Positions 1,496-53,090 of a DNA stretch of 64,000 nt are shown here, one piece after another (within the stretch, counting starts at the first letter, position 1; each line of letters begins with the position of its first letter). The notes below the pieces were generated by a model, which saw nothing but the letters and a program-made list of their open reading frames with translations, made no database searches and was not told the origin of the DNA. Origin of the DNA: Raja brachyura (taxonomy: Eukaryota); NCBI GenBank assembly GCA_963514005.1, contig OY740798.1:41788001-41852000 (forward strand), in the 5' to 3' direction. The position numbers were made by a program, and so were the translations under genes.

Positions 1496-2029
1496 CTGGT
1501 AATTCTGTTAATTGTCTTCACCACCATCCCGCCGATTCATTGATCCTAAGTTTTCTCTTCCTGGAGGTAGAATCCCAATGATTCACATCCTATGCATAAA
1601 GAAATTTTCCACAGTCCTAAATAGTCTAGTGAACACAGGGCATGGCTACTCAATCCCTCCTCAAATTAAACCCACGATTCCTGGAACCAATCCAGAGATT
1701 TTTTGCTGTAGTTCCCGCAACGGCAAGTATATTACTTTTTTAGTTAATGTGACCTGAAATGTTTTCTAATATTCTTGATGAAATGGCTTTGAGGTGATTC
1801 ATTCACCGCAGGATACCAGCTTCTGATCTGCTTTTGTTGCCAGATTATTGTATTTGGCTAGTCAATAGTAATACCCAGGTTATTAATGGTGGGAAAATGC
1901 TGGAGTAACTCAGTGGGTCAGGAGTGACTCATCTATGGAGGACATGGATAGATGTTGTTTAGGGTTGGGACAGTTCTTCAGACTGATTGTAGTCAGGGGG
2001 AAAAAGCTTGAACAGAGTTGGGTAGTCAA

Positions 2030-2417
2030 GGTAGCTGTAGGTAATTTCAGTTAATTGTCTTTGTTGACTGGGCATTTTCACTGGATCATTGGGGAAAAAA
2101 AAGTAAGCAAGTTTTCAGAACTTAGGATAACCGACCGGTAATGCTAAATCCCCGCCAAACTTCACAGCTGTGTATCTCTGGCTTATTAAAAATTGTCTGG
2201 CTTCTTAAAGGTGTCTCCACTCCTTCTCCCCCCTTCTTCCCCCCCTTCTCCCCCCTCCCCTTCCCCCACGCCCCCCTCTTTTAAAGGATTTACCGTACAC
2301 TGTGCTAGCCGTCTTAGCCTTCCTATTCATCGCGGTGTGTGCCTGTATCACCTTGGCTTTGCGCCATGTCAATTTCAGACAGCAATCCCCCCGCTTTCCC
2401 TGGCCCCCGCCTTTGCG

Positions 2418-2450
<33 letters not shown>

Positions 2451-2719
2451 CCACTCTGACAGTTGCCGTTCCAGTTCCCAGATTTTCAGGCGTGGTCGCG
2501 AACTTGAAAGTCGCCGGCAGTCTGCTGAAAATTTGCGATTTTTTCGGTGACTGCCAGCATCATTGAATGACTGAAAAAGTTGCGGCGTGATGACGTATTG
2601 ACGTGCAGTGTTTCCTCACGTGTCACAACATTTTTTTTGTCGTCGCTGGATTTTGAAATGATTAAAAGCGTTCGGCGACGCTGACAGTCGCCGAAACATC
2701 GCCAAGTGGATCAGGCCCT
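2030..2719. mobile_element. Truncated PIF/Harbinger-type MITE (right end only), containing a (GT)n tract at ~2419-2449
   Basis: Ends in CCAAGTGGATCAGGCCCT followed by TTA; the internal sequence is homologous to ~16600-17055 of the complete copy. Confidence 0.65.
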
Positions 2720-2832
2720 TTATTTTTTTCCCCCTACAAATGCTGCATGGCCCATTATAATGTTCCAGCAGATTGTTTGTTGATTTAGTCTGACCCGTCT
2801 GCCTACTCATTTTAAACCTACACCAACAGCTA

Positions 2833-4442
2833 CAGTGGCTTGCAAAAGTTTTCATACCACTTGAACTTTTCCACATTTTGTCAAGTTACAACCACAAACG
2901 TAAATGTATTTTATTGTGATTTTATGTGATAGACCAACACAAAGTGGCGCATAATTGTGAAGTGGAAGGAAAATGATACGTGGTTTTCAAATTTTTTTAC
3001 AAATAAAAAACTGAAAAGTGTGGCATGCAAAAGTATTCAGCCCCCTTTACTCTGATACTCCTAAATAAAATCCAGTGCAACCAATTGCCTTCAGAGGTCA
3101 CCTAAGTAGTAAATAGAGTCCACTTGTGTGTAATCTAATCTCAGTATAAATACAGCTGTTCTGTGAAGGCCTCAGTGGTTTGTTAGAGAACATTAGTGAA
3201 CAAACAGCATCATGAAGCTCAAGGAACACACCAGACAGGTCAGGGATAAAGTTGTGGAGAAGTTTAAAGCAGGATTAGGTTATAAAAATATATCCCAAGC
3301 TTTGAACATCTCACGGAGCACTGTTCAATCCATCATCCGAAAATGGAAAGAGAATGGCACAACTGCAAACCAACCAAGACATGGCCACCCACCTACAGTA
3401 ACAGGCCGGGCAAGGAGAGCATTGATCAGAGAAGCAGCCAAGAGGCCCATGGTAACATTGGAGGAACTGCAGAGATCCACAGCTCAGAATCTGTCCACAG
3501 GACAACTATTAGCCGTGCACTCCACAAATTGGGCCTTTATGGAAGAGTGGTAAGAAGAAAGCCATTGTTGAAACAAAGCCATAAGAAATCCCGTTTGCAG
3601 TTTGTCACAAGCCATGTGGGGGACACAGCAAACATGTAGAGGAAGGTGCTCTGGTCTGATGAGACCAAAATTGAAGTTTTTGGCATAAATGCAAAACGCT
3701 ATGTGTGACGGAAAACTAACACTGCACATCACCCTGAACACACCATACCCACTGTGAAACATGGTGGTGGCAGCAACATGCTGTGGGAATGCTTTTCTTC
3801 AGCAAGGACAGGGAAGCTTGTCAGAGTTGATGGGAAGATGGATGGAGCCAAATACAGGGCAATCTTGGAAGAAAACCTGTTAGAGTCTGCAAAAGACTTG
3901 AGACTGGGGCAGAGGTTCACCTTCCATCAGGACAACGACCCTAAACATACAGCCAGAGCTACAATGGAATGGTTTAGATCAAAGCATATTCATGTGTTAG
4001 AATGGCCCAGTCACAAGTCCAGACTTAAATCCAATTGAGAATCTCTGGGAAGACTTGAAAATTGCTGTTCACAGACGCTCTCCATCCAATCTGACTGAGT
4101 TTGAGCTATTTTGCAACGAAGAATGGGCAAAAATGTCAGTCTCTAAATGTGCAAAGCTGGTAGAGACATAGCCCAAAAGACTTGCAGCTGTAATTGCAGT
4201 GAAAGGTGGTTCTACAAAGTATTGACTCGGGGGGGCTGAATACTTTTGCACGCCACACTTTCAAGTTTTTTATTTGTAATAAAATTTGGAAACATGTATC
4301 ATTTTCCTTCCACTTCACAATTATGCGCCACTTTGTGTTGGTCTATCACATAAAATCCCAATAAAATACATTTATGTTTGTGGTTGTAACGTGACAAAAT
4401 GTGGAAATGTTCAAGGGGTATGAATACTTTTGCAAGCCACTG
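2833..4442 (+). mobile_element. Full-length Tc1/mariner transposon, Passport-like, IR/DR type
   Basis: TA flanks at 2831-2832 and 4443-4444; ~210-bp TIRs starting CAGTGGCTTGCAAAAGT and ending ACTTTTGCAAGCCACTG; inner repeats GCAAAAGTATTCA near 3027 and 4236; internal transposase. Confidence 0.95.
3212..4225 (+). pseudogene. Inactivated Tc1 (DDE) transposase
   Basis: MKLKEHTRQVRDKVVEKFKAGLGYK paired-like HTH, then WSDETK, QDNDPKH and PDLNPIENL motifs. Frameshifts near 3489 and ~4012; in-frame stops near 3637 and 3706. Confidence 0.92.
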
Positions 4443-43181: not shown

Positions 43182-46100
43182 CTTCATTGACTGCTCCTTA
43201 GAGAGTGCATAAAAGGAAAGTAGCTACATGGGGCGATTCTATAGAGAGTAAATATAATGCTCTGGTGTGAGAGGTTTTGGTGTGGGTGATGGTGGAATAA
43301 GTGACTTTATTTCCCCCATTCCTTGTTCAGTAAAGATGGCAGTTGTATGTTCCTACAGTGTGTAGGAAGTCAAGGAAACTTCCAGTATCCTTGAAGACTA
43401 CACATGGGGAAGATGTGTCCAGCTACAGCTCATTACAGACTACATTAGAGAGCTGGAGCAGCAACAGCTGGCCTTATAGGGCAGCAAAGTTGCACAGCGG
43501 TAGATTTACTGCCTTGCAGCGCCTGAGACATGGGTTTTCTCTGAGATCTTCAATTTCCTCCCAAACTCCAAGCCATGAGTGGAAATCCTGTGGGGGATAT
43601 GGGGGACGTGTCCCCTCGTGTTTTGAGAGGTGTGGGCAATCCCCCCCATGTTTTGTAATCTGGATTTTGAAATTAGGTGAAAAAAAATCTATTAAAAAAG
43701 ACAAACATGATTTTAGATTAATTGGCTTGATATAAATGTAAATTGTCCCTAGTGTGTGTAGGATAGTGTTAATGTGTGGGGATTGCTGGTCAGTGCAGAT
43801 GGTGGGCTGTACGGTCTGTTTCCACGCTGTATCTCCAAATCAAAGTTTGGATCACCTCAGGAGAGTGAAACTGAAGAGATCACAGATAGGAATCACAATG
43901 AGGTGGCCATGCATAGGTTATAGGCAGAAAGTAGATGGCTGACCACCAGGAAAGGGAGTAAATAGTGTACTGGAGTCCCCTGTGGCTATTCCCCTTATCA
44001 ACAGGTATGCCCCTTGTTTATCGGCGATCCATAACAATCCACACATGGTGAAATCAATCGTTATTCCATTAAGCAAACAGGAACATTCAAACAGCCAGCT
44101 GCTCACGTCTGGCTCCACTGGCTTGCAAGGAAGAGAGAGACCGAGAGAGTCTTTGTTTAGTACCGTAATACCATGTGATGGGTGGCTTGCACATATGTGT
44201 GGTGAAGGATATAAATGACATGAATTAATAAGGGTTAATCTACATCCTTTTAAATAAATAAAGCATATGTATATTGGTTAGTAGGGCATATTGTAATACA
44301 CCCGTATAAGGTGCGGTATTTATTATTTTACCATATATGAGAGCACATAAAACTAAACAGGTCATGCACAGTTCGGGTATAGCCAGTAAATTTTCGAATT
44401 AGCGGGTTTGGTTTGCAGACACGTGCACAATAATAACCTCCAGCAGACACCTCTTCCTTCGCTGGGGGAGCAAGTCCTTTATCGGGCAAACACGGAGAAG
44501 ACACCGGTGGAGATGGTGCCACTGGGGAAGGCAGGGATGGCTCTGACACTGGCAGAGAAATCGCTGGAGCGGGATTCACAGAGTATGAGTGGGCTGGTCC
44601 GGGTAAGGACGTGGAGGTGCCGGTTCATTAACCAGATGGAGGTGTTGGCGGGTTCACCAATAGATGCCATTGTCAATACTGACCAGGTACGAACATGGCT
44701 CTGCAGTGGATTCCAGAATGACACCGAGGCGGTTGTAACCTCGGCGTGATTGCAAACGGACAACCTGTCCCTTGTTGAGCGGTTGAAGCGGAGAGCTGGT
44801 TTCATCATAGTATTTTCTTGTATGTTGCGGCGGCATTGGAGCTGGGATTGGATAACTGACGGTGTGCAAAGTTGTGGTTCTAGTCGTTGCGAGGCAGAGT
44901 GGAGCGGGTTCACCGTGACATGAGCCATTCAGCTGCAGATCCCAGAAGAGGGTGGTGGACGATGTTCTGTAGGTTGAGTAAGTCGAGATAAACATCAGAG
45001 CTGGCCCTGTATGAGTGTTCCATTAGTTGTTTTTCACATTTTACCGAGCGCTCTGCCAGACCGTTACACTGTGGGTACTTGGGGCTCCAGGTAATGTGGT
45101 GAAAGTCCCAGGTTTTCGCAAAATTTCTGAAGAGCTGACTGGAGAGCTGAGGTCCATTATCTGAGAGTAGCTTTAGGGGGGCTCCGTGGTCAGAGAAGTG
45201 GCGAGTTAGTTTCTGAATGACCATGGGTGAGGTTGGGATACTGAGTAGGTCGATTTCAAGCCATCCTGAGTAGGAATCGACTAAAACCAGGTGTTGTTGT
45301 CCATGCCACTCGAAGATGTCGGCTACTACTGTGGACCAGGGAAGTCCGGTGCGGGACAAGTGGTTGTTTCTGTTGGTGCGGGGTCAAGCTATTACAGATT
45401 GGGCAAGCAGAATGTAGTTAGCCATGTCTGGCCAGAACAGCATGCCTTTCGCATGTTGAAGTGTTATTTCTGCAGCGGGATGGCCGCCATGGAGAATGTT
45501 GAAGTACTTGCTGTGAAGAGACGTCGGGATGACTGCCTTGTGTCCTTTCATTATCACGCCGTCCTGAATGACCAATTCATCACAGACTGGGAAAAATGGG
45601 CGGATAGCATGTGGCAGGTGGTGCTATCTATCTGGTCAGCCATGGCGGATGACAATGGCCAGCGATTGTAGCGTTTCGTCACTAAGATTACTAAACTGGC
45701 AGGTGGGAGGCAGGAGACAATCATAACAGTATACTCCTCGTGCTCATCATCAGACAGGTGTTTTTCGCAGGTTGGGCAAGGTGACCTTGAGAGGGTGTCA
45801 GCTGAGTGCATGTCCTTACCGCGCTTGTAGATTAGTCTGATGTCTTATCTCTATAGTTCCATCATCATGTGTTGTAAGCACGCTGGTGCCGTGTGGATCA
45901 GTTTACTGAGGATACTGACCAGGGGCTGGTGCTCTGTTTCGACAGTGATCGGGTTGCCAAAGATAAAGTCCTTGAATTTCTTGCAGGCAAAGGTTACTGC
46001 AAATAGCTCCTTTTTCGATTTGAGCGTAGCGCTGTTCAGTGTCGGTCGTGGTATGGGAGGCAGAGGCAACTGGTCTGGAGCCCTTTTCGTCGTCATGTAG

Positions 46101-46672
46101 CCAAGCAGTCCATACTGGGAGGCACCACAGGTGAGGATGACGGGTAAATTGGCATCAAAGTATGTGAGGGTTGCAGCGCAAGACATTAGTTGTTTGAGGG
46201 TTTCAAATGCCCTCTGCTCGTGTTGGTGGCAGGACCAATGTGTATCCTTGTGGGTCAGTTGTCGCTGCGGGGCTGACAGCTTGCTGAAGTTTGGGATGAA
46301 TTTTCCCTGGTAGTTTAACATGCCTAAGAATCATTGTAGAGCAGTCACGTCTGTAGGTGCTGGCATTTTGTTGATGGCAATGGTTTTAGACGGGTCTGGC
46401 TGGAGTCCGTTATTGATGAACACGTGGCCCACATAAGTCACTTCGCCGACCTGAAACCGGCACTTGAGAGGATTGAATTTGAGATTTACCTCCCTGGCAC
46501 AATCCAGGACCTGTTTCAGGTTTGAGTCATGTTCTTGTGCATTGTGCCCGATGACCAGGATTTTGTCCACGATTATGTAACATGAGTAGCCAGCAAAGAG
46601 TTGTTCCATAGTACGTTGGAAAACCTCACAGGCTGAATTGATGCCAAATGGCATTCGTAAAAATCGGTAGCA

Positions 46673-46714
46673 TCTCCTTTTGAGGCGTGGGTTCGTATCC
46701 CATTTCTGCCACCA
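46673..46714 (+). other. tRNA-Leu 3' fragment including CCA (extended primer-binding site)
   Basis: TCTCCTTTTGAGGCGTGGGTTCGTATCCCATTTCTGCCACCA versus the vertebrate tRNA-Leu(CAA/CAG) 3' end TCTCCNNTGGAGGCGTGGGTTCGAATCCCACTTCTGACACCA (from memory); abuts the LTR end at 46715. Confidence 0.8.
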
Positions 46715-47028
46715 TGTTTATCAGCAATCCATAACAACACAGCCATGGTGAAATCAATCTTTATTCCATTAAGCAAACAGGAACATTCTCGCATCTGGTT
46801 CCGCTGGCTTGTGATCGAGAGAGAGAGAGAGAGAGACTTTGTGTAGTACCGTAATACCATGCACATTTGTCAGGGCTCTGAAAAAACTTTTTTTCACTGT
46901 TGCCAGCCGGGCAACCTTAGCAGCTTTTTAGGTTGCCAAATGACAGTTTAGGTGGTCATTTAAGACGGTTTGCATGACACGTGCGAAAATGTGCTCGGAC
47001 AAAGTGTGTAGTTACCAGTCAGAATTAT

Positions 47029-49709
47029 AGAAACATAGAAAATAGGTGCAGGAGTAGGCCATTCGGCCCTTCGAGCCTGCACCGCCATTCAATGTGATCA
47101 TGGCTGATCATCCAACTCAGTATGCCGTACCTGCCTTCTCTCCATACCCCCTGATCCCTTTAGCCACAAGTGCCACATCTAACGCCCTCTTAAATATAGC
47201 CAATGAACTGGCCTCAACTACCTTCTGTGGCAGAGAATTCCAGAGACTCACCACTCTCTGTGTAAAGAATGTTTTCCTCATTTCGGTCCTAAAGGAATTC
47301 CCCCTTATCCTTAGACTGTGACCCCTTGTTCTGGACTCCCCCAACATCGGGAACAATCTTCCAGCATCTAGCTTGTCCAACCCCTTAAGAATTTTGTAGG
47401 TTTCTATAAGATCCCCCCTCAATCTTCTAAATTCCATCGAGTACAAACCGAGTCTATCCAATCTTTCCTCATATGAAAGTCCTGACATCCCAGGAATCAG
47501 TCTGGTGAATCTTCTCTGTACCCCCTCTATGGCAAGGATGTCTTTCCTCAGATTTGGAGACCAAAACTGTACGCAGTACTCCAGGTGTGGCCTCACCAAA
47601 ACCCTGTACAACTGCAGTAGAACCTCCCTGCTCCTATACTCAAATCCTTTCGCTATGAATGCTAACATACCATTTGCTTTCTTCACTGCCTGCTGCACCT
47701 GCATGCCTACTTTCAATGACTGGTGTACCATGACACCCAGGTCTCGTTGCATCTCCCCCTTACCTAATCTGCCACCATTCAGATAATAGTCTACCCTCAT
47801 GTTTTTGCCACCAAAGTGGATAACCTCACATTTATCCACATTGTACTGCATCTGCCATGCATCTGCCCATTCACTCAGCCTATCCAAATCACCCTGCAGC
47901 CTCCAAGCATCCTCCTCACACCTAACTATACCCCGCAGCTTGGTATCATCTGCAAATTTGGAGATGTTGCATTGAATTCCCTCGTCCAAATCATTAATAT
48001 ATATTGTAAATAGCTGGGGTCCCAGCACTGAGCCTTGCGGCACCCCACTAGTCACTGCCTGCCATTCTGAAAAGGACCCGTTTACTCCTACCCTTTGCCT
48101 CCTGTCTGCTAGCCAGTTCTCTATCCACATCAATACTGAACCCCCAATACCGTGTGCTTTAAGTTTGTATGCTAATCTCTTATGCGGGACCTTGTCGAAA
48201 GCCTTCTGAAAGTCTAGATATAACACATCCACTGGTTCTCCCTTATCCACTCTACTAGTTACATCCTCGAAAAATTCTATCAGATTTGTCAGACATGATT
48301 TACCTTTCGTAAATCCATGCTGACTTTGTCCAATGATTTCACCACTTTCCAAATGCGCTGCTATCCCATCTTTAATAACTGACTCTAGCAGTTTCCCCAC
48401 TACCGATGTTAGACTAACTGGTCTGTAATTCCCCGCTTTCTCTCTCCCTCCTTTTTTAAAAAGTGGGGTTACATTAGCTACCCTCCAATCCTCAGGAACT
48501 ACTCCAGAATCTAAGGAATTTTGAAAAATTATCACTAATGCATCCACTATTTCTGTGGCTACCTCCTTGAGTACTCTGGGATGCAGACTATCTGGCCCTG
48601 GGGATTTATCGGCCTTCAATCCGTTCAATTTACCCAACACCACCTCCCGGCTAACCTGGATTTCACTCAGTTCCTCCATCTTATTTGACCCCCGTTCCAC
48701 TGCTATTTCCGGCAGATTATTTATGTCTTCCTTAGTGAAGACAGAACCAAAGTAGTTATTCAATTGGTCTGCCATGTCCTTGTTCCCCATGATCAATTCA
48801 CCTGTTTCTGACTGCAAGGGACCAACATTTGTTTTAACTAGTCTCTTTCTCTTTACATATCTATAAAAACTTTTGCAGTCAGTTTTTATGTTCCCTGCCA
48901 GTTTCCTTTCATAATCTATTTTCCCTTTCCTAATTAAGCCCTTTGTCCTCCTCTGCTGGATTCTGAATTTCTCCCAGTCCTCCGGTAGGCTGCTTTTTCT
49001 GGCAAATTTGTATGCCTCATCTTTTGTTTTTATACTATCCCTGATTTCCCTTGTTATCCATGGATGCACCACCTTCCCCGATTTATTCTTTTGCCAAACT
49101 GGTATGAACAACTTTTGTACTTCATCCATGCAGTCTTTAAATACCTTCCATTGCACATCCACTGTCAACCCTTTAAGAATCACCTGCCAGTCTATCTTGG
49201 CCAATTCACATCTCATACCTTCAAAGTTACCTTTGTTCAAGTTCAGAACCCTTGTTTCTGACTTAATTTTGTCACTCTCCATCCTAATGAAGAACTCAAC
49301 CATATTATGGTCACTCTTGCCCAAGGGGCCACGCACAACAAGACTGCTAACTAACCCTTCCTCATTACTCAATACCCAGTCTAGAATAGCCTGCTCTCTC
49401 GTTGGTTCCTCCACATGTTGGTTGAGAAAACTATCCCGCATACATTCCAGGAAATCCTCTTCCTCAGCACCCCTGCCAATTTGATTCACCCAATCTACAT
49501 GCAGATTGAAGTCACCCATTATAACCGTGTTACCCTTGTTGCACGCATTTCTAATTTCCTGTTTGATGCCATCCCCAACTCCAATACTACTGTTAGGTGG
49601 CCTGTACACAGTTCCCACTAGCGTTTTCTGCCCCTTAGAGTTTCGCAGCTCTACCCATATCGATTCCACATCCTCCACGCTAATGTCCTTCCTTTCTATT
49701 GCATTAATC
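47029..49709 (-). mobile_element. Young 5'-truncated CR1 LINE
   Basis: (TTTCTATG)-type tail; ATTAT duplicated at 47024-47028 and 49710-49714; uninterrupted ORF2. Confidence 0.95.
47117..49709 (-). CDS. CR1 ORF2 (partial APE endonuclease plus RT), open but 5'-truncated
   Basis: About 860 codons with no stop: VYRPPN, MGDFN, GKSDHN, NYRPVSLTS, LDFQKAFDKVPH, GVPQGSVLGP, KFADDTK. The listed start at 49720 lies in flanking DNA. Confidence 0.9.
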
Positions 49710-50899
49710 ATTATGCTCAATTAAGCATTCCCATGTTATTTCTGCTTCAAATAAAGTCACAAACTAAACATATTCACCAATCAAGACATGATATATACCA
49801 CAATGACATGCAGCAAAATTATAATACAGTATCTCAACACTTTTTACACATTGCAATTAATGCAATTTCTATTAGTTCTTTCCACTTCCAAACAAAAATG
49901 TGGTTGAATTATTCAGCATATGATCAACCTGTGTCAATAAATCGTGGACCATGGTCACATATATGCTTAACCATGCACACTACAGATTGATGCAAGCATT
50001 TTTTCTGTGAAGGACCGAAAATTACCATGCCATGGCCATAGCATGGGTCGTTATTGCTATTGGTACAGAAACACTCTCGCTTCCCACATCATTTATCCAT
50101 AACAAAATATACAGGTTGCAAGGACATTTCTAAAGGCATTTTTATGATAATAGCTGTTAAATCCGACTATACCCATCTGACAGGTTAAACATTACACTAA
50201 CTGACAAGAGATGGACAAAGGACATAACTGCAGCAATTTTTACTTGGTAATATGTTTAAAGGTGTCAAAACGCCACATTCTCAGAGATTCAGATTAGATG
50301 TACGTGTTGTGAACAGCAATGAAGATACCCAGTTTGTACGCACCAGATTAAAAAAAAAAGATTGATAAACGCTGTTTCCATCATCCCACTTCAGAATTAG
50401 CGTTAAAATTTCAACTGAAATATCTCCTGACCAAATTTGTGATGTATATGACCGACTGTAGAAGTAAAACCTGGATAAATCCGACGTATAGTTGTGAATG
50501 TTACTCATTAAATAACTACAGTACTGATACTCCATATTAAGAACATTGATTTGCCATTCAAATGAATTCTGTAATAATGTGTCAACGGTAGCAGTGACAA
50601 TCAAACACTGCAGTTTTAATGTTTCACGTGTTCACAATTTAATTAATCTATCTTCATGGACTAAAACAAATAATAACATTGGGAATTAAAACACATTTGA
50701 TCGCATTCCATTATCAAACATAGTCAATGTTCGCTCTGAAGACATTTGCAGCATAATAGGGTCAGAGAGGGGGGGTGTGTGTGAATCAGTGCGGGGTGGA
50801 TAGATGGTGGGTGGGGGGGGGGTGGGGGGGGGGGGTTGAGAAGGCAATTGGTGCGGAATGGATGGATTGAGGCAGGTGAATTAGTACGTGTTGGTTGGA

Positions 50900-51560
50900 G
50901 TATGTCAGTGATGTTGAATGGGGGGGATCAGTATGGGATGGATGGGGGAGATCAGTACAGGATGAATGGGTGGATCAATACAGGATGCATGGGGATAGAC
51001 AAAAATGCTGGAGAAACTCAGCGGGTGAGGCAGCATCTATGGAGCAAAGGAAATGGGTAACGTTTCGGTTTGAGACCCTTCTTCATACTGTTCCCCCCAT
51101 TCTTCTTGAATGGGGGGATCAGTACAGGATGGATGGGGGGGGGGAATCAGCGCAGGATGAATGGGGGGGGGGTCAGTACAGTGTGGATCAGAGGGTCTGT
51201 GCAGAATGAATGGGTGATCACTACAGGATGAATGAGGGGATCAGTACAGGATGAATGGGAGCTTCAGTACAGGATGAATGGAGGGTTCAGTAAACGATGA
51301 ATGAGGGGATCAGTACAGGATGAATGGGTGGTTCAGTAAAAGATGAATGGGAAGATCACTACAGGGTGGATGGGTGGCTCAGCGCAGGGTAAATGGAGGG
51401 TGGGTCAGTACGAGATGAATGGGGGGGGTCAGTGCAGGATGAATGGGGGGATTGGCAGGAGAATCAATGCGAGGTGGATAGGGTGATCAGCGCAGGATGA
51501 ATAGATGGGGAGGAGAGCTCGGGATGTCAGTGAGGATTGAATAGAGGCGGGAATGGGGAT
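50900..51560. repeat. Degenerate ~23-bp minisatellite (GATCAGTACAGGATGAATGGGGG) inside the hAT element
   Basis: Repeated TCAGTACAGGATGAATG units, interrupted by a Penelope tail at ~50996-51090. Confidence 0.8.
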
Positions 51561-53090
51561 CAGTGCGGGATGGAGATGAGTGGTCTCAGGATAAGGGGGG
51601 TGGAGGGGGGCACACAAGAGAAAGAGAGAGGGGAAAGGGCAAAGGAGGTGGGGAGGAAGGAAGGTCAGTGCTCCTCCGAGAACATCCCCCGCTGCCTTGG
51701 CCATCCCTGTTCACCGCCAAGTGCCGCCGCCAAAGGGCGAGGTGGTTGGGATCTTCTTGCCACCGCCTCCCCTCCTCCGCCAGCCAACAGCAAGATGTGG
51801 GGCCGAGCGGTACAGCTCAAATATCCTATAGCTATAGGATCTTTGGTGCAGCTGCTTCAGATGGTGGAAGGAAACCTCGCCCTCCCTCCCTCCTCCCAGC
51901 CTCGGCGTGCAAGAGGGTTTGTTTTGAAAGCGGTTATCACCGTTTGTGGATTTGCAAGCAGCGGCCGCTATCAGGGTGGTCGGGGTGCGAGTGGAGGAAG
52001 CGGTGGAGGCACTGTCGCGTCCGCTGCTGCCGCGGTGCAGGGCCAGTCATTCGCTCCGACCCTTCATCACCACGCACCTAATATCTTTGTCCCGCACAAC
52101 AGCTGTTGCTGACACAAAACGTCACTTTCCTTTTCTCCAGAGATGCTGCCCGACCCGCTGAGTTACTCCAGTTTTTTGTGTCTATCTTCGGTATAAACCA
52201 GTGTCTGCAGTGCCAAGCCAGGCAAAATGACTCGGCGTTTAAATTGCCCAGCAGCACTTTGGGAGGTCATTGGCACCCGGGCAACTGCTATTTCGAGCCC
52301 TGTATGTGTGGTGAAGGTTATAAATGGCATGAATTAATAAGAGTTAATCTACACCCCTTTGAATACCATGGGAGGTTGGGAGGAGACGAGGTGATCAGGG
52401 GAGGGCAGCAGTAGTCAGGTTTGTGGCATGGAGACTGGGTCTGAGGTGCTATGGGGAAGGATGAAGTCCAGCAAAACAATAGTGATAGGAGATGCATTAG
52501 TTAGACTGGCAAACAAGAATTCTGTGGCAACAAACAAGACTCCAGGATGGTTGCCTCGGTGCCGGGGTCCAGGATGTTCCTAAGCGGCTGCTGAACATTC
52601 TCGAGGGGGAGCAGCTGGAGGTTGTTGCGCATATTGGCACAATTGACATGGGTAGAAAAAGGGATGAGATCCTGCGAGTGAATATAGAGAGTGAAGCAGA
52701 AGATTAAAAAGAGGGTAGCAATCTCCAGATTACTCGTAGTGCCATGTGCTAGCAAGGGTAGGAGTAAGAAGATGTGACAGATGAATGCATGGCTCAAGTG
52801 TTGTGGCAGCGATTCAGATTTTTTTTACACCATTAGGGCAGAGGTAAACTTTACAAGAGGCACCTGAACTGGAGGGGGACCAATTCCTTCCAGGGGAGGT
52901 TGCTTGTGCTACTTAGGAGGGCTCAAACAAGAAAGGCAGTGAAGATTGTGTGAACCAGAGTAGAAGGTCAGAAATTGAAAGGAATGATGGGAAGATAGAG
53001 GTCAGAACCAGTCAGTGTCAAAGGAAGAACAAATAAGGAGAAGTATAGGAATATGGTGTTGCTGATGAGCAGAAGTATGTTTATTTCAAT

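Follow-up and report, generated by a model that had tools for sequence, protein, structure and literature searches.

The 64,000-nt stretch of DNA analysed here (the window), from the 2.7-Gb genome of Raja brachyura, contains what is very probably an integrated, internally deleted Ty3/gypsy element in which a 42-nt tract arose when reverse transcriptase (RT) copied a methylated tRNA and the product then mis-primed at a 2-nt microhomology within RT. This copy is one of several hundred, and the formation of such tracts is a genome-wide process and no one-off. For Gypsy families that are primed by tRNA-Leu and have a short PBS, we consider it likely that defective insertions, about half of the PBS-bearing copies, stem in large part from rescue of a dead-end, tRNA-tailed plus strand, and that these insertions make up a datable DNA archive of germ-line tRNA methylation (m1A58, m3C at e2 on both Leu-CAG and Leu-CAA, m1G37 and m2,2G26) which can be read from assemblies alone, in other animals as well.

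The element lies on the minus strand, with its 5′ LTR at 52353-52303 and 46870-46715 and its 3′ LTR at 44244-44015. Its features, in window coordinates, are as follows.

44010-44014, no strand: downstream copy of the target duplication (TSD; CCCCT), identical to 52354-52358
44015-44244, minus strand: 3′ LTR, 230 bp, TG...CA
44245-44251, minus strand: decayed polypurine tract, as read from the sequence; the purine run is longer in relatives
44915-45380, minus strand: integrase core remnant (Pfam rve, E=1.3e-07, 32.3 bits against a cut-off of 32.6)
46055-46330, minus strand: RNase H-like region remnant (Pfam RT_RNaseH_2, E=1.8e-08)
46334-46672, minus strand: C-terminal half of reverse transcriptase, beginning at the deletion joint (Pfam RVT_1 positions 114-204 of 205, E=9.5e-11)
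46673-46714, minus strand: 42-nt copy of the 3′ end of tRNA-Leu-CAG (CCA, T arm and variable arm), aligned to the genome's own tRNA genes
46679, plus strand: variable-arm C (e2/47d), C>T; likely misincorporation at m3C, going by non-C counts in pooled tracts
46696, plus strand: tRNA position 58, A>T; likely misincorporation at m1A58, the base being A in 13/13 CAG and 13/13 CAA genes
46715-46870, minus strand: 5′ LTR, 3′ part
46871-52302, no strand: later insertion splitting the 5′ LTR, with DNA-transposon-like ends CAGGGCTC...GAGCCCTG, identified from sequence
52303-52353, minus strand: 5′ LTR, 5′ part (91% identity over 56 nt to the start of the 3′ LTR)
52354-52358, no strand: upstream copy of the target duplication (CCCCT)

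The direct TG...CA LTRs and the 5-bp duplication, which falls within the 4-6-bp range, are those of a Ty3/gypsy element, as is the domain order of RT, RNase H and integrase in the Pfam matches (rve is 0.3 bits short of its cut-off), and by motif resemblance it may belong to the Mag lineage. An initial annotation of this DNA had described the element as properly integrated, and the CCCCT duplicated at 44010-44014 and 52354-52358 bears this out, the 5′ LTR having been split later by the 5.4-kb insertion, which is bounded by 8-bp inverted ends and contains a LINE-like stretch nested within it and, at 51190-51476, a 23-nt minisatellite. The pieces of the 5′ LTR are identical to the 3′ LTR at 179 of 202 aligned bases (88.6%). 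ARAGORN detected no tRNA gene within the 64-kb window, and a tRNA gene or tRNA-derived SINE was ruled out as an identity for the tract, which consists of the 3′ part of the tRNA only and is antisense to the element. Elsewhere in the window, positions 18001-22000 are 75% G+C with extreme strand skew and are probably a simple tandem array.

Read on the minus strand, the element passes from the last base of its 5′ LTR, at 46715, straight into the complement of tRNA-Leu-CAG (46714 to 46673), giving 42 nt for a match that the annotation had put at about 33-42 nt. Compared with the genome's commonest Leu-CAG gene, the tract has five differences, at 46696, 46679, 46681, 46703 and 46709. Two of them fall at the signature sites described below, namely the T for A at tRNA position 58 (46696), which the annotation had read correctly, and the C>T in the variable arm (46679). 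The three further mismatches are roughly as expected from the 11% LTR divergence. Beyond the tract the RT reading frame resumes in frame (CYRFLRMPFG), and from nt 44 onward the 2470-bp internal region is a single block corresponding to positions 1748-4173 of a 4177-bp family copy. Relative to that copy about 1.7 kb is absent, comprising the leader, gag, protease and early RT, in agreement with the direct jump to mid-RT noted at the outset. At the joint, family copies read ..TTCGGA/TGCTACC (the slash marks the joint), and a 2-nt microhomology (GA) fits both sides. None of the public contigs listed bridged the window joint, and public runs contained at most 0.37 of the words.

A genome-wide search for extended tRNA-Leu tracts ending in CCA gave 521 pattern matches, against none for the reversed-pattern control. 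An LTR-type CA end precedes 27 of 30 tracts examined, and ARAGORN called a tRNA gene at 0 of 10 tract loci tested. By hand count, position 58 is T in 52, A in 38, G in 6 and C in 4 of the first 100 matches. Since patterns demanding matching flanks favour such flanks, they were left out of the control rates, for which a PBS-anchored set was used instead. This unselected sample was defined by an anchoring CA plus the 18-nt match only, and the first 100 of its 1039 sites, by coordinate, were used. Extended tracts, with a total tRNA match of 34-58 nt, were present at 51 of these 100 sites, in a census that covers neither solo LTRs nor copies with a decayed PBS and whose frequencies may be inflated by survival bias; an extension score of at least 7 was reached in 0 of 2200 control windows. 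A pattern for any tRNA, which needed a ..WCA-type LTR end and may miss families with other ends, returned 531 matches (control, 13); 99 of the first 100 look like Leu-CAG or Leu-CAA, and no primer tRNA other than Leu was apparent among those 100. Pooling gave a partly pattern-selected set of 211 distinct copies (134 extended and 77 others), in which the tracts sit behind 77 different 12-nt LTR ends and represent two isoacceptors, Leu-CAG and Leu-CAA. Metagenome contigs from other organisms yielded 17 distinct tracts in which an LTR end is followed by extended tRNA-Leu sequence; two of the 17 carry T58, and two run into Gypsy-like coding sequence.

The annotation had suggested scanning the genome for mismatch enrichment at position 58, and the enrichment is pronounced: this base was altered in 30 of the 51 unselected extended tracts (T in 25, G in 3 and C in 2, with A in the other 21), compared with 3 of 204 A/T control bases (p=5e-22). 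Within these tracts non-CpG positions were mismatched in 15 of 560 cases and CpG positions in 12-20%. The species' tRNA-Leu genes, to which alignment had also been proposed, were enumerated via their 5′ halves as exact matches only (13 CAG and 13 CAA), and all 26 have A58. Changes also concentrate at a second site, the variable-arm C (e2/47d). This is the 36th nucleotide from the 3′ end, and 23 of the 28 unselected CAA tracts are altered there. The pooled set, itself partly pattern-selected, has a base other than C at e2 in 60 of 75 CAA-type and 19 of 19 CAG-type tracts, while C is present in 13 of 13 CAA genes and 11 of 13 CAG genes. The change in CAG tracts is nearly uniform (C>T in 17 of 19), and a lost isodecoder gene could be an alternative source of it. 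Tract ends cluster just before G37, where 30 of the 37 pooled CAA tracts reaching position 38 stop. Tracts that clearly continue past G37 were altered at 37 in 10 of 12 cases by hand count, with four of the 12 known from the pattern match only and one without an LTR end, and none among those examined passed G26 by more than 1 nt. A modification at tRNA positions 33-34, considered for two loci, was rejected; the mismatches there belong to gag, within a microhomology of 15 nt.

An intron interrupts all 13 CAA genes, and the CAA tracts that cross the anticodon do so without it. Because the tracts include CCA and are spliced, the template was mature tRNA. It was also very likely modified tRNA, and from position together with zebrafish and human data we infer that the modifications would be m1A58, m3C at e2, m1G37 and m2,2G26. 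For zebrafish tRNA-Leu-CAG, the available portion of a recent study gives signatures of m1A58, m3C at e2 and m2,2G26 (10.1101/2024.01.30.575011), and an m1G37 signature appears among zebrafish tRNA sites in the corresponding portions of two reports (10.1101/2024.01.30.575011; PMC8062790). In that same part of the zebrafish study m3C at e2 is given for Leu-CAG and not for Leu-CAA (10.1101/2024.01.30.575011). The 21 of 51 tracts that keep A58 may mean that many events used unmethylated tRNA and were not true read-through. This retention, taken with T58 in only 2 of 17 tracts elsewhere, argues that copying of unmodified tRNA contributes.

The annotation regarded 18 nt as the canonical PBS and expected full-length members to carry it ahead of leader and gag. 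Such members do have a leader and gag and no extended tract, but their PBS is shorter: gag-bearing copies of the window family match the tRNA over 10-12 nt only, and gag-bearing copies overall over 10-14 nt. Among 21 long loci (20 chosen by RT similarity and one by its LTR pair), those whose 5′ end is readable have a tRNA match of about 10 nt followed by the element's own leader and gag. These gag-bearing copies thus lack the 18-nt PBS of retroviruses and have a short PBS retained by the element, of the Ty1/Ty3 type. Given a native PBS of 10-14 nt, even the first 18 nt of the tracts were copied from tRNA, and an 18-nt match is usually itself a tRNA copy.

The window-family LTR end plus 10 nt occurs at 111 sites, and a hand count of the first 100 gave 42 native copies, 28 extended, 14 stopped at 18 nt and 16 other. 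Position 58 is altered in 20 of the 28 extended copies and is T in 18. Other families have 1026 such sites, the first 100 of which divide by hand count into 35 short, 31 extended and 34 with 18 nt; of 20 fetched from these families 19 match over 10-14 nt, most then continuing into a T-rich leader and the start of gag. Mis-joining is also seen in the 14 of 100 window-family copies that stopped at 18 nt, and read-through of A58 is therefore not required for mis-transfer. Of the original proposal that RT read through m1A58 and the product was mis-transferred internally, the events as such are supported, the window copy having the variable-arm C>T as well as T58, and read-through proves to be dispensable for mis-transfer.

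The 5′ region of normal copies offers two further observations. In the window family a box with some likeness to the complement of tRNA positions 58-44 lies 11-45 nt past the LTR in the native leader. It stands out from shuffled sequence at p<=0.03 in 10 of 14 rows of this family, as against only 3 of 20 rows of other families, and from its sequence it is possibly a second tRNA-pairing site. In a minority of copies an 18-nt tRNA copy has been rejoined to the leader, so that tRNA sequence can take the place of the short PBS while the rest of the 5′ region is retained. Ten individual loci have a tRNA copy of at least 18 nt rejoined to their own leader at short homologies.

The 134 extended tracts represent 127 junction groups. 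A few junctions are common to 2-3 copies, and copies with a common junction differ at position 58, at e2 or at the base after position 38. Joints are located in the leader, gag, protease, RT, RNase H and integrase regions and occur in both orientations. Microhomology at the joints averages 2.69 nt in extended copies (83 mappable of 134), compared with 0.36 under the null (maximum 0.66 in 1000 draws), and 3.27 nt in non-extended copies (48 mappable of 77), compared with 0.32 by chance; it is zero at 16 of the 83 extended junctions. Orientation calls by tblastx, which are approximate and include some mis-calls, gave 36 sense, 9 antisense and 6 unmapped for extended copies, and 24, 20 and 5 for the others. 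With only 1.5 kb of sequence taken at 30 of the 100 unselected loci, the fetched DNA includes the 3′ LTR for 18 of the 51 extended copies and not for 33. A perfect 5-bp TSD flanks 12 of these 18, and 6 are without one. LTR-pair identity of extended copies spans 80-98.5%, from which it follows that the process recurred over a long time, and rearranged copies include some with 98-100% identical LTRs and perfect TSDs. At six loci an antisense block follows the tRNA copy and the sequence is sense again before the 3′ LTR, and some rearranged copies hold 5-6 shuffled blocks. One locus (L402, near position 1500) has a spliced Leu-CAA copy without acceptor end or LTR, beside an A run, which is possibly a LINE-made retrocopy.

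These data bear on three other accounts of the tracts. Copies might have inherited the tract from an ancestral master with a long T58 tract and later lost their interiors by ordinary deletion, as the few junctions common to 2-3 copies would allow and as the leader box might hint, if its likeness to tRNA 58-44 is the relic of an old capture. Against this, gag-bearing copies have no tract, the tracts follow 77 different LTR ends and come from two isoacceptors, and the 134 copies form 127 junction groups with all four bases seen at 58. Inheritance from a master is refuted as a general rule, and we regard it as extremely improbable. It is highly improbable that the tract is a true RT product in which the T at 46696 reflects neutral decay, a caveat of the annotation, or a T58 variant among the tRNA genes. 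The other three mismatches in 42 nt and the 88.6% identity of the LTR pair are what decay would lead one to expect, and the gene list covers exact matches only (13 CAG, 13 CAA); yet A/T controls changed in 3 of 204 cases against T58 in 25 of 51 unselected and 18 of 28 window-family tracts, and A58 is found in 26 of 26 genes.

A third account places the joints after insertion, with host repair patching resident elements with free tRNA-tailed cDNA by gene conversion or microhomology-mediated end joining. Host end joining is also compatible with the short microhomologies, the inversions and the multi-block rearrangements, and the tract would still derive from reverse-transcribed tRNA. The tract is, however, flush with the LTR end in the copies examined, about half of the window-family PBS-bearing copies are affected, and rearranged copies with 98-100% identical LTRs and perfect TSDs leave little time for repair to have acted, which makes this account very unlikely.

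Copying of tRNA followed by mis-priming during reverse transcription, the reading we favour, would proceed through a small number of steps. The first plus strong-stop DNA would carry the tRNA copy, as in Ty3, on which the design supposed here is modelled, and this copy would measure 18 nt if stopped at m1A58 and 34-61 nt with read-through. The tRNA tail would be unable to pair with the short PBS and would normally be a dead end. Sometimes, however, its 3′ end may pair by a few bases with the unfinished minus strand, giving a deletion, or the tail may pair with the plus-sense template, giving an inversion. With both strands completed, the resulting LTR-tRNA-partial interior-LTR molecule would be accepted and inserted by integrase. 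The genome thus likely preserves a record of failed copying events and of old RNA modifications.

In the 1980s-90s, extra tRNA sequence was reported in retroviral DNA, either integrated or circular. Pulsinelli and Temin in 1991 reportedly observed strand-transfer errors in retroviral vectors, with large deletions from the PBS via mis-annealed plus strong-stop DNA; those events were reportedly single-round, in cell culture and in a retrovirus with an 18-nt PBS, whereas the native PBS here is short. In Ty3, according to the available parts of two reports, the first plus strand takes in 12 nt of tRNA sequence as a dead-end product, and the element does not inherit its PBS from the tRNA (PMC5371799; PMC7472051). 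The elements studied here resemble Ty3 and Ty1, as portrayed in the available part of one of these reports, in having a short PBS not inherited from tRNA and a plus strand copied beyond the PBS (PMC5371799). They differ in that copying in Ty3 and Ty1, so far as those portions describe it, stops after 12 nt and the product is a dead end in particles, whereas here 18-61 nt were copied, with misincorporations, and were integrated in hundreds of copies.

For HIV-1, the accessible sections of two papers name m1A58 as the main stop, with minor products reaching 55, 54 or 37, and describe a leader box matching the T arm that can catch over-extended DNA (PMC13191261, PMC8599865). This primer over-extension sequence, as presented there, resembles the leader box of the window family. 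HIV-1 products past 54 are characterised in those sections as non-functional or unable to integrate (PMC8599865, PMC13191261), which makes their frequency in this genome surprising; unlike in HIV-1, over-extended products have here entered the germ line as integrated copies with target duplications. Misincorporation mapping, in the portions available for mim-tRNAseq (PMC8062790) and tRAM-seq (10.1101/2024.01.30.575011), gives mismatches or stops at the same positions, 58, e2/47d, 37 and 26. Those methods work in vitro on present-day RNA, whereas the changes here were written in vivo by the RT of the element itself and, over a long time, became fixed in the genome. Our literature search, in which older and subscription papers were thinly covered, found no prior report of a genome-scale fossil record of tRNA tracts. 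The chemistry is familiar from retroviruses and Ty3; what is apparently new is a fossil record, abundant and made in vivo, of several tRNA modifications.

If this account is correct, tRNA-over-extended plus strands, deemed non-integrating in HIV-1, integrate often in the vertebrate germ line, and they provide a concrete route to non-autonomous, internally deleted LTR elements at the copying step. In such families, 18-nt 'perfect PBS' calls flag damaged copies and not the master. The account would further predict m3C at e2 of Raja brachyura tRNA-Leu-CAA, and an assembly could serve to map and roughly date RNA modifications, which as a rule are not recorded in DNA.
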